A DNA stretch of 64,000 bases from Bradymonadia bacterium (GTDB lineage Bacteria > Myxococcota_A > Bradymonadia > UBA7976 > UBA1532), in NCBI GenBank assembly GCA_046290225.1, contig JBKAGE010000075.1:96001-160000 (forward strand). The letters run 5' to 3'. The notes beneath the pieces were generated by a model. That model did no database searches and was not told the origin of the DNA. It saw only the letters and a list, made by a program, of their open reading frames with translations. A program made the translations under genes and the position numbers. The first letter of the stretch is position 1. Every line of letters begins with the position of its first letter. This document shows positions 7,217-63,912 of the stretch, piece by piece.

Positions 7217-7759
7217 CGAATTGGGGGTCGACGGAGGTGGTGGCTGGGCCTTTGTAGGCAGTTATCGCTTCGCTCTGACTGCGTAGGCGCCGGGCCTTCG
7301 GCAGCCCTGCGGGCCGCCTCGTCTGGCGCGTACACGTTCAGGCACCTGCTGACGCAGGCACCTTCCCGGGTAGGCAGGGTCGCTCAATGCTGACGCATTG
7401 ATTGCTCGCTCCCCTGCGTAAAGAGCTTCTTCTGTATCTCGTTGCTTAACCCCGCCGGGGTTCGGCCTACCGCGAACCTGAAAGCCTCTGAGTATGAACG
7501 CTAGGCGTAAGCCCCAACAGCGTTGGAAGCAGCACAAAGCCACACCAAAAGTGACTTTTTACGCAGGGGAGCGAGCGAATAAGGCGAAGCCTTGAGCGAC
7601 CCTGCCTACCCGGAGGCCTGCTCGCGCCAGCGAGCGTGCCGACGTGTACGCAGCTCCAAGGCGGGCCGCAGGCCGGCCGACAGAGCTGCCTACGCAGGCG
7701 GAGCGAAGCGACGACTGCCTACAAAGGCCCAGCCACCACCTCCATCACTCCCCAATTCG
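7217..7759. repeat. Palindromic non-coding element copy 1 (REPIN/MITE-like; ~200-bp imperfect inverted arms and a 135-bp core)
   Basis: Left GGAGGTGGTGGCTGGGCCTTTGTAGGCAGT (7233-) pairs with right ACTGCCTACAAAGGCCCAGCCACCACCTCC (-7743); inner 19-bp IR at 7404-7422 / 7558-7576; homologous to 22296-22813. Confidence 0.92.
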
Positions 7760-7782
7760 GCACTTGGCCAGTTCTCTCGTTC

Positions 7783-22295: not shown

Positions 22296-22813
22296 GTGTC
22301 TGTTGTGGCTGGGCCTTGGTAGGCAGTCATCGCTTCGCTCCGCCTGCGTAGGCGCCGGGCCTTCGGCAGTCCTTCGGACCGCCTCGTCTGGCGCGTACAC
22401 GTTCAGGCATCCGCTTGCGCGGACACCCTTCCGGGTAGGCAGGGTCGCTCAATGCTGACGCATTGATTGCTCGCTCCCCTGCGTAAAAAGTCAGTTTTGG
22501 TGTGGCTCTGCACTGATTCCGGTGCTGCTGGGGCTTTCGCCGAGCCTTGGGGCTCAGAGGCTTGCAGGTTCGCGGTAGGTCGAATCCCGGCGGGGTTCAG
22601 CAACGAGATACAGAAGAAGCTCTTTACGCAGGGGAGCGAGCGAACAGGGCGAAGCCTTGAGCGACCCTGCCTACCCGGAGACCTGCTCGCGCCAGCGAGT
22701 ACGTCGACGTGTACGCGCCAGACGAGGCGGTCCGAAGGACTGCCGAAGGCCCGGCGCCTACGCAGGCGGAGCGCAGCGACGACTGCCTACCAAGGCCCAG
22801 CCACAACAGACGC
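22296..22813. repeat. Palindromic non-coding element copy 2 (core inverted relative to copy 1)
   Basis: 22298-22402 pairs with the right end (to 22811) over 105 bp with 2 mismatches; inner 19-bp IR at 22469-22487 / 22623-22641; lies between convergent fliA and fliJ. Confidence 0.95.
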
Positions 22814-63400: not shown

Positions 63401-63506
63401 CGATCCGGAAGGTAGCCACGGGCTCACGGGGCCGCGGCCGGATCTGCCGTGGGATGGTCCCACGGCGCTGCTTGAGATGATGGTGGAGTTCTTTCAAGCG
63501 CAGTAG
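60420..63506 (+). CDS. Large lipoprotein with an alpha/beta-hydrolase-like domain
   Basis: Lipobox LWGC; PFPND, LDGFG, FPVVMYQH, IDAYGHG, TRDVLRQ..VD; nucleophile elbow reads GQGYG. Confidence 0.8.
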   Translation: MNSPFDSASSQVPRRPHLSRWLPCLCFALWGCLPDDPPEVLSAAPQEGTGPMVVFEMKATPIPDVPFPNDLLTRPDPDSTTGLRLNLSIQAPTAANRSMRRRLLELDGFGLSGQITVRFDAPVDVTLLRGVGRAYVDDPLWVIDLTEGAHFGERIPLDLGRGNFPLVVHDPDGSFPRDPRAGEPNLIFETVAEDLDGDGQLGPLEDGDGDGVLDQPNVFSEGGDSVDDLVDFYEKETDTLILRPVVPLRPGHTYAVVITDQVRGVDGQPVRSPFPFIHHSRQFATLKALPQALADHGLDLQSVAFTWAFTTQTATRALLDLRHGLVGQGPFEALEDVFPPGVTAIEVLKDQGTPEPLLLRTEDLESLLDAAGEILLGGTELERAGVRQAVSTIDYLVSARFVAPDLLIEEPEVDENGLIVTQAEGNFAPAPIFRLDTTAMTVEASAATVPLWCAVPKATDVHQAPFPVVMYQHSLGATGFELIRVAGPLTAGGFAVCSIDAYGHGAVLSDAETQALETALEPLGMAPFISAFMGLRARDLNNDGVLDPGAGTFTADPFRTRDVLRQGVVDALQTIRVLQGFDGFAGWAPAQGGGAGALAGDFNGDGVVDFGGPGVTYAVTGQGYGAMVASMVGAVAPEIDATALISGGGGLTDIGTRTQDRSILLSAVAQIMGPLIIGDPPESNFTALRFWVPDEDAPRAAFARLPPLVPGDMVRLVNLTSGEAQTATVDGEGGFHITVAADAVRAPKISATLAKVRNQRQLAETPPYTLDADEVTAFGDPLALEVVDVNGNLKHRVDALDSVISHNGLIYPAGSPLVAIEGGMGLRRQTPELRRFLMLYQTAVDPGDPLIYARAHLLEPRELVSPAPLTDPMAAPPTPTPGSTENSPLMILATAGDSVLPVSSAVALGRAAGVVSIDEPLDDHNGRTPNEVLIDYRVVEGVPRLERYEGGGLFDVDDLSDGTDGFELPRLDPPLRWSVETPGVGTSSIRVPVLDPEGSHGLTGPRPDLPWDGPTALLEMMVEFFQAQ

Positions 63507-63524
63507 AGCGGACGACCGCGCTGC

Positions 63525-63912
63525 GCGCCGTCTGTAGCGGACGGCCAGCTAAAGCTTTCGTGCCTTTGGCACCGCCTGTAGCGGACGCCTCGCCTTTGGC
63601 GAGAGCTGTAGCGGACGCTCATTTGCCTATGGCAAATTCCCTGTAGTTTTTTTGAAGATCAGTTGGGGGGCGTTGGCTCATCTACCGCGAAGGTTGTGGC
63701 CCTTTGATGAACCAGTTCCGGCGTAAGCCCCAATCGGGGTCGAGAAGCCTACCCGGCACACCATAAGTCTCTTAGAAAGCTACAGCTCAGGCTGCCGGAG
63801 GCAGACCCGGCGTCCGCTACAGCTTTGCGCCGGCGTAAGCCGGGGCAGGCGTCCGCTTCAGGCGGTGCCAAAGGCACGAAAGCTTTAGCTGGCCGTCCGC
63901 TACAGGCGGTGC
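63525..63912. repeat. Palindromic non-coding element copy 3 (different arms, related core)
   Basis: 47-bp perfect IR at 63532-63578 / 63859-63905; arms are tandem CTGTAGCGGACG-hairpin units; core shares three boxes with copies 1 and 2. Confidence 0.92.

Follow-up and report, generated by a model that had tools for sequence, protein, structure and literature searches.

Close to the right-hand end of the window, that is, of the whole 64,000-nt stretch of DNA analysed here, lies a palindromic element (copy 3, family B; plus strand, 63506..63912), which begins at the upstream ORF's stop codon and, as DNA, folds into a long branched hairpin (z -17.9). Its left arm (63506..63646, plus strand) consists of tandem modules, each made of TGTAG-CGGACG and a mini-hairpin; its right arm (63779..63912, minus strand) has the same module type in inverted orientation and is devoid of the outermost module. 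The arm pair 63525-63590/63847-63912 is 95% complementary. The arms enclose a loop, or core (63641..63784, plus strand, including the innermost arm bases), with three boxes on the plus strand: box 1 (63682..63691), with CTAC, the complement of GTAG, at its start; box 2 (63720..63733), a 3-bp stem with a GNAA loop, similar to a hairpin that serves as an arm module in copy 3; and box 3 (63757..63768).

Two further copies in the window belong to family A. Copy 1 (7217..7760, plus strand; loop 7427-7566) follows a flagellar hook-type gene, and copy 2 (22298..22811, minus strand; loop about 22476-22626) has a sigma-70 family gene on one side and fliJ on the other, the two being convergent. The initial annotation had reported three boxes common to elements with otherwise unrelated arms, and this description was borne out: the boxes start at 63682, 63720 and 63757 in copy 3 (spacing 38/37 nt) and at 7467, 7504 and 7541 in copy 1 (37/37 nt), and in copy 2, which has the GAAA variant of the hairpin loop, they are on the minus strand (box 1 start at 22578, box 2 at 22529-22541). 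The arms of copies 1 and 3 could not be aligned (best blastn E 0.48). A strict three-box pattern matched precisely copies 1-3 in the window and 18 sites in the genome; a looser box pattern had 46 genome matches, versus 0 for the reversed control.

The genome comprises 8.58 Mb in 83 contigs and is 99% complete. Searching it with a loop profile yielded 75 matches, among which full-length loops were assigned to family A (39, one of them an A/B hybrid), family B (26) and one odd type, the rest being partial. The loop of ~135 nt is carried by palindromes of about 370-580 nt that are spread across the genome, and the box spacing holds in this larger alignment to about 1 nt, almost every copy having 37 or 38 nt. 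Counted by arms, each family has 50 loci: full loops are dominant in A (39 of 50, with 6 loci retaining a part and 5 none) and in the majority in B (28 of 50, with 1 part and 21 none). Family A measures 466-474 nt from the outermost GTAG to CTAC in 35 of the 36 measurable copies (39 examined) and has ragged ends; family B spans 368-465 nt and its end is fairly fixed.

Arms are unrelated between the two families, and GTAG-led modules with GNA mini-hairpins occur in both. B arms contain 3-6 modules, in each of which GTAG and an invariant 6-mer precede a small hairpin of variable sequence. The hairpin loops of the arms are predominantly C(GNA)G triloops, the most frequent being C(GAA)G and C(GCA)G with their relatives; GNA triloops are a typical feature of DNA hairpins of high stability. 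Left and right arms fall into two lineages, with values of 0.83 and 0.85 inside and 0.78-0.80 across them, and their outer 30 nt are paired copy by copy (0.73 for the own pair vs 0.61 for others). It should be added that one and the same MITE-like element of ~165 nt is inserted in an A loop and in a B loop (C34:360847-361156 and C78:372671-372968). Other ~165-nt fold-back repeats with internal hairpins form clusters of 23, 11 and 4 loci (e.g. C56:41980-42145, C54:69879-70041 and C55:39111-39275), and abundant 16-mers near 80 copies represent a protein repeat.

The sequence between the boxes had been described as divergent, and diverged it is, although not unrelated: the A and B consensuses coincide in part in both inter-box gaps (15 of 27 and 10 of 25 sites) and left of box 1 (17 of 35), a level equalled by 33, 53 and 33 of 2000 shuffles, respectively. 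Over the entire loop, 81 of 135 sites agree. Because homology extends along the whole length, non-box stretches included, the loops of both families are, judged from their consensus sequences, one homologous sequence of common descent. The shared core is hence a product of whole-loop descent and not of three motifs set in unrelated DNA. The earlier view of the core as the selected functional unit was supported in so far as the boxes exceed the rest of the loop in conservation in each family separately, their spacing holds and most loci retain the loop. Measured in this one genome, with neither a same-genus relative nor an outgroup, and for boxes originally picked from three of the same copies, the minor-allele share was 0.042 in boxes vs 0.203 between them in family A, and 0.084 vs 0.169 in family B. 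When the box mask was shifted along the loop, it did as well as the true position once in 83 shifts for A and four times in 84 for B. The boxes are therefore the slowest-changing patches of the loop. Either family showed the effect for C alone and for G alone; per-site variation was correlated between A and B (rho 0.34), and the overlap of invariant sites, 25 in number, was above chance (odds ratio 3.25, p 0.002). In family B, sites identical between A and B were no less variable than those that differ (0.116 vs 0.124, p 0.68).

Inter-box segments occur as discrete alleles that are reshuffled among copies. Linkage in family A (Mantel) was 0.43-0.57 inside a segment and fell to between -0.05 and 0.27 for pairs of segments; the pattern was less clear in B. 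Hybrid copies on contigs C82 and C81 switch near box 1, where they unite B-type with A-type arms or change to other sequence; breakpoints of other truncated copies lie elsewhere. Together with the whole-loop homology and a weaker box effect in B, such clear shuffling and the hybrids would suit a neutral history of the same repeat family, in which the boxes are functionless patches, either homogenised via gene conversion among the many copies and across the two families or mutating slowly within a passively inherited linker. In its favour, the B base is a minor A allele at 18 of the 54 sites where the consensuses differ, but this number is about that expected by chance from 56 minor alleles. 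The separate effects for C and G in both families, and the coincidence of invariant sites in two long-separated families, likewise speak against it, and we consider this explanation rather unlikely, if the foremost among the alternatives.

The core had also been proposed to be a structured non-coding RNA with a constant scaffold and variable, possibly guide-like, segments. The stem of box 2, which is 96.9% paired and topped by a GNAA loop in nearly all copies, and the discrete reshuffled alleles of the variable segments would fit such an RNA. However, an alignment of 33 of the 66 full loops revealed 0 compensatory changes in the GNAA stem (33 sequences), and the joint alignment gave no consensus fold (-1.34 kcal/mol, covariation 0). 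Individual loops are weakly folded (mean z -0.2 to -0.9). An Rfam search returned no match on any loop, in agreement with the first impression that no known RNA family is involved. The 112 variable segments found no targets in the masked genome, the best score being 17 vs 17 for shuffled segments. No sigma-70-type promoter was found for the loop, and its orientation in same-direction gaps is random, 15 copies pointing with transcription and 17 against. A derivative of IS110 bridge RNA or TnpB omega-RNA was rejected as well, given that no IS110 gene was found, that tnpB ends gave no significant match and that no guide targets were detected. The boxes look like pieces of a small mobile DNA element and not like a guide RNA, and the RNA interpretation was left with very little probability.

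Descent of the loop from a decayed protein gene, be it a RAYT-like start, a tnpB end or a four-helix-bundle gene, is the least probable of the explanations and largely refuted. What recommended it was a RAYT-like N-terminal profile that scored 15.6-15.8 bits on one A copy, the top match of the genome, and the variable base of the box 2 loop, which falls on a third codon position in the frame of that match. Nevertheless, the match stems from box 2, which had selected the query, and the flanks of that A copy score like shuffles. The ratio pN/pS was 0.76-1.33 in all 12 frames, and a Pfam search of the 12 loop frames was blank. Comparison with tnpB ends gave a best E of 0.64, with no significant match at 19 tnpB loci, 4 of them from this genome. 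The third variant was rejected because the loop has no homology to the interiors of four-helix-bundle cassettes beyond arm-adjacent bases.

As for genomic context, 64 of the 65 full copies reside between called protein genes and one at a contig end; this location is not the one within rRNA genes that an intervening sequence (IVS), which RNase III excises, would have. According to crude gene calls, convergent gaps hold 27 of 64 copies (background 255 of 1633) and divergent gaps 5 of 64 (background 447 of 1633); the distance to a stop codon is at most 30 nt in 22 of the 26 B copies. No target duplication was detected in B by a statistical test of 4-mers (0 of 26 copies), nor in A, with its ragged ends, by inspection. 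In a single contig of a related strain (depth 2.6), the sequences flanking an A copy are joined directly, 584 nt being replaced by 5 different letters, which is a weak hint that copies are insertions.

The assembly yielded 0 matches to the Y1/RAYT families PF01797 and NF047646, and our own Y1/RAYT profiles reached a best E of 0.13; this top match, beside a B half-arm, was rejected, as it runs antisense to a response-regulator gene. Given the 83 contigs, a RAYT gene may have been lost or may not have been assembled; Y1 genes are present in 12 of 30 relatives of the order. A RAYT-like Y1 family (L124, L162-L191) is present, and multi-copy, in 25 of 301 genomes of the phylum and was not found in the order with that query. 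No IS110 gene was found in the assembly, and a search for IS91 had no match, but its positive control gave none either. The genome encodes four tnpB genes (L199-L202), with no Y1 tnpA found in the assembly, as well as two reverse transcriptases and one DDE_Tnp_1 gene, which are linked to the arms only via a minimal A hairpin. The latter is situated between the two reverse-transcriptase genes, which are convergent (L024, C79:177218-180823); one of them is preceded by a region with inverted ends, as is the case in retrons.

Both four-helix-bundle (PF05635) genes of the genome sit inside long palindromic arms: one, frameshifted, takes the place of the loop in A arms, and the other is intact and belongs to a third palindrome family. 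This family, whose arms are tandem hexamers and whose core measures ~213 nt (33 copies of 205-220 nt), has about 49 loci (e.g. C70:216408-216746). Part of its core resembles an arm module of the copy with the intact gene (C72:82618-82929), and another of its cores is interrupted by the DDE_Tnp_1 gene (L232, C50:55946-56395). The association between PF05635 and palindromes was tested in this genome and in its order, where 12 loci were found in relatives, 10 of them readable and 5 of these 10 with inverted repeats flanking nearby. These data, the two reverse transcriptases and the copy-by-copy symmetry of the outer arm ends are compatible with gene-less copies of an IVS/S23p-type four-helix-bundle cassette spreading by a non-RAYT route, for instance RNA plus a host reverse transcriptase, or replication fold-back, with the loop as the signal for that route. 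On the other hand, the gene was seen in just 1 of 50 A loci and in none of the 50 B loci, searching the reverse-transcriptase locus with the core profile gave no match, and neither homology to cassette interiors nor a strong stem was detected in the loop (see above). We regard this scenario as improbable, roughly halfway between the neutral and the RNA explanations.

A bolder proposal, which we hold to be a long shot, is that the loop, not the arms, would be the mobility signal of a RAYT-independent class of elements, a tripartite ssDNA site with a putative four-helix-bundle protein (S23p/Avd-like) or a host enzyme as its reader. If so, the arms would be exchangeable wrappers, any fold-back arms could replicate, and four-helix-bundle cassettes would be the gene-bearing form. 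With two arm families on one loop, hybrids between them and no RAYT gene found, 65 natural variants allow the question "arms or loop?", which bears on the spread of REP-like palindromes and of four-helix-bundle cassettes, to be asked directly; reach and testability are narrowed by the confinement, so far, to a single genome, whose organism is uncultured.

Outside this genome, the GTDB scan gave 2 matches, neither of which reached an E of 1 when scored against the core profile, and the metagenome scan 74 pattern-selected matches with a best E of 3e-4, 1 of the 74 having a weak 23-bp flank repeat. Viral scans produced 1 and 4 matches with no notable match to the core. BLAST against 30 genomes of the order returned two short weak matches for A, apparently in coding DNA, and none for B. 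A sequence-only model, which scored only 20-27 candidates per genome, was applied to 112 genomes of the class and 150 of the phylum (overlapping sets) and gave 3 single weak matches, none of them in an inverted repeat. Thus, among the genomes, metagenome and viral contigs searched, the element is so far confined to one genome. It was also undescribed in the literature covered by our search, which left subscription journals aside; msDNA-like repeats were reportedly noted in a myxobacterium in 1997.

From the observed number of copies, their architecture, surroundings and recombination, and the constraint on the boxes, we favour, with a probability of about 0.55, the reading that the palindromes are non-autonomous ssDNA elements of REPIN/BIME-like type and that the boxes mark stretches under constraint in their central linker. 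In the copies themselves, one ancestral loop is now found within two unrelated sets of GTAG-led modular arms; the element folds back as a long branched hairpin and is placed behind stop codons with no target duplication, and copies exchange segments and form hybrids. For the remaining steps, we infer that the element would be copied as single-stranded DNA by an HUH (Y1/RAYT-type) nuclease, since lost or unassembled. The arms would supply GTAG recognition sites and be otherwise free to change, and the loop would keep short cis sites, namely a C|TAC nick-like site in box 1, the GNAA mini-hairpin of box 2 and the C/A-rich box 3, serving binding, nicking or rejoining. The boxes are probably cis sites, with a putative role in protein binding or nicking. 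Against this reading count the facts that CTAC is a mere 4-mer and that box 1 has variants without it, that no Y1/RAYT gene was found, that 21 of 50 B loci are loop-less, and that the contrast at sites shared by A and B is absent in B.

Among known systems, bacterial MITEs, derived from IS elements and bounded by terminal inverted repeats, are likewise non-coding and multi-copy with inverted ends. They differ from the element described here, in which no target duplication was seen in B and ends are ragged in A, and the sole DDE_Tnp_1 gene found sits in another repeat family. The 23S rRNA IVS with an S23p ORF in Coxiella and Leptospira is similar in having complementary ends around a loop able to hold a PF05635 gene, according to the portion of the source available (PMC4990558). 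In contrast, the copies examined here lie between protein genes, almost all of them are gene-less, and their arms are 130-250 nt long compared with the 28-bp stem of the IVS.

The closest parallel is with BIME-1 and REPIN, associated with RAYT (TnpA-REP) in E. coli and Pseudomonas. Differences are nonetheless considerable. The present element is much longer, with 3-6 tandem modules per arm, and its loop is unstructured, asymmetric and common to two arm families, unlike REPIN spacers, which are described in the sections available as poorly conserved and folding into a hairpin (PMC3337134, PMC3116915). Hybrids occur here, whereas none are mentioned for SBW25 in the available part of the report (PMC3337134). 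A classical REP has GTAG directly before a stem-loop of 20-40 nt; in our case a constant 6-mer stands between GTAG and the small variable hairpin. No RAYT gene, and accordingly no cognate RAYT flanked by the repeats, was found, and for that reason the element was not filed as a REPIN/BIME member, despite its BIME/REPIN-like working. Conversely, it exists as many intergenic copies of inverted GTAG-tagged units, and the whole unit, though not the weakly folded loop itself, forms an ssDNA hairpin, as in copy 3. As far as the accessible parts of the sources show, unequal arms, mosaic structure and a position 3' of genes are shared with BIME-1/REPIN (PMC3333891, PMC3733652, PMC3116915), and the conserved loop has its counterpart in the long conserved linker, L, of BIME-1 (PMC3333891). 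Moreover, box 1 of family A fits, as a match of sequence only, the cut consensus of the E. coli iREP-II given in the available text (PMC3333891).
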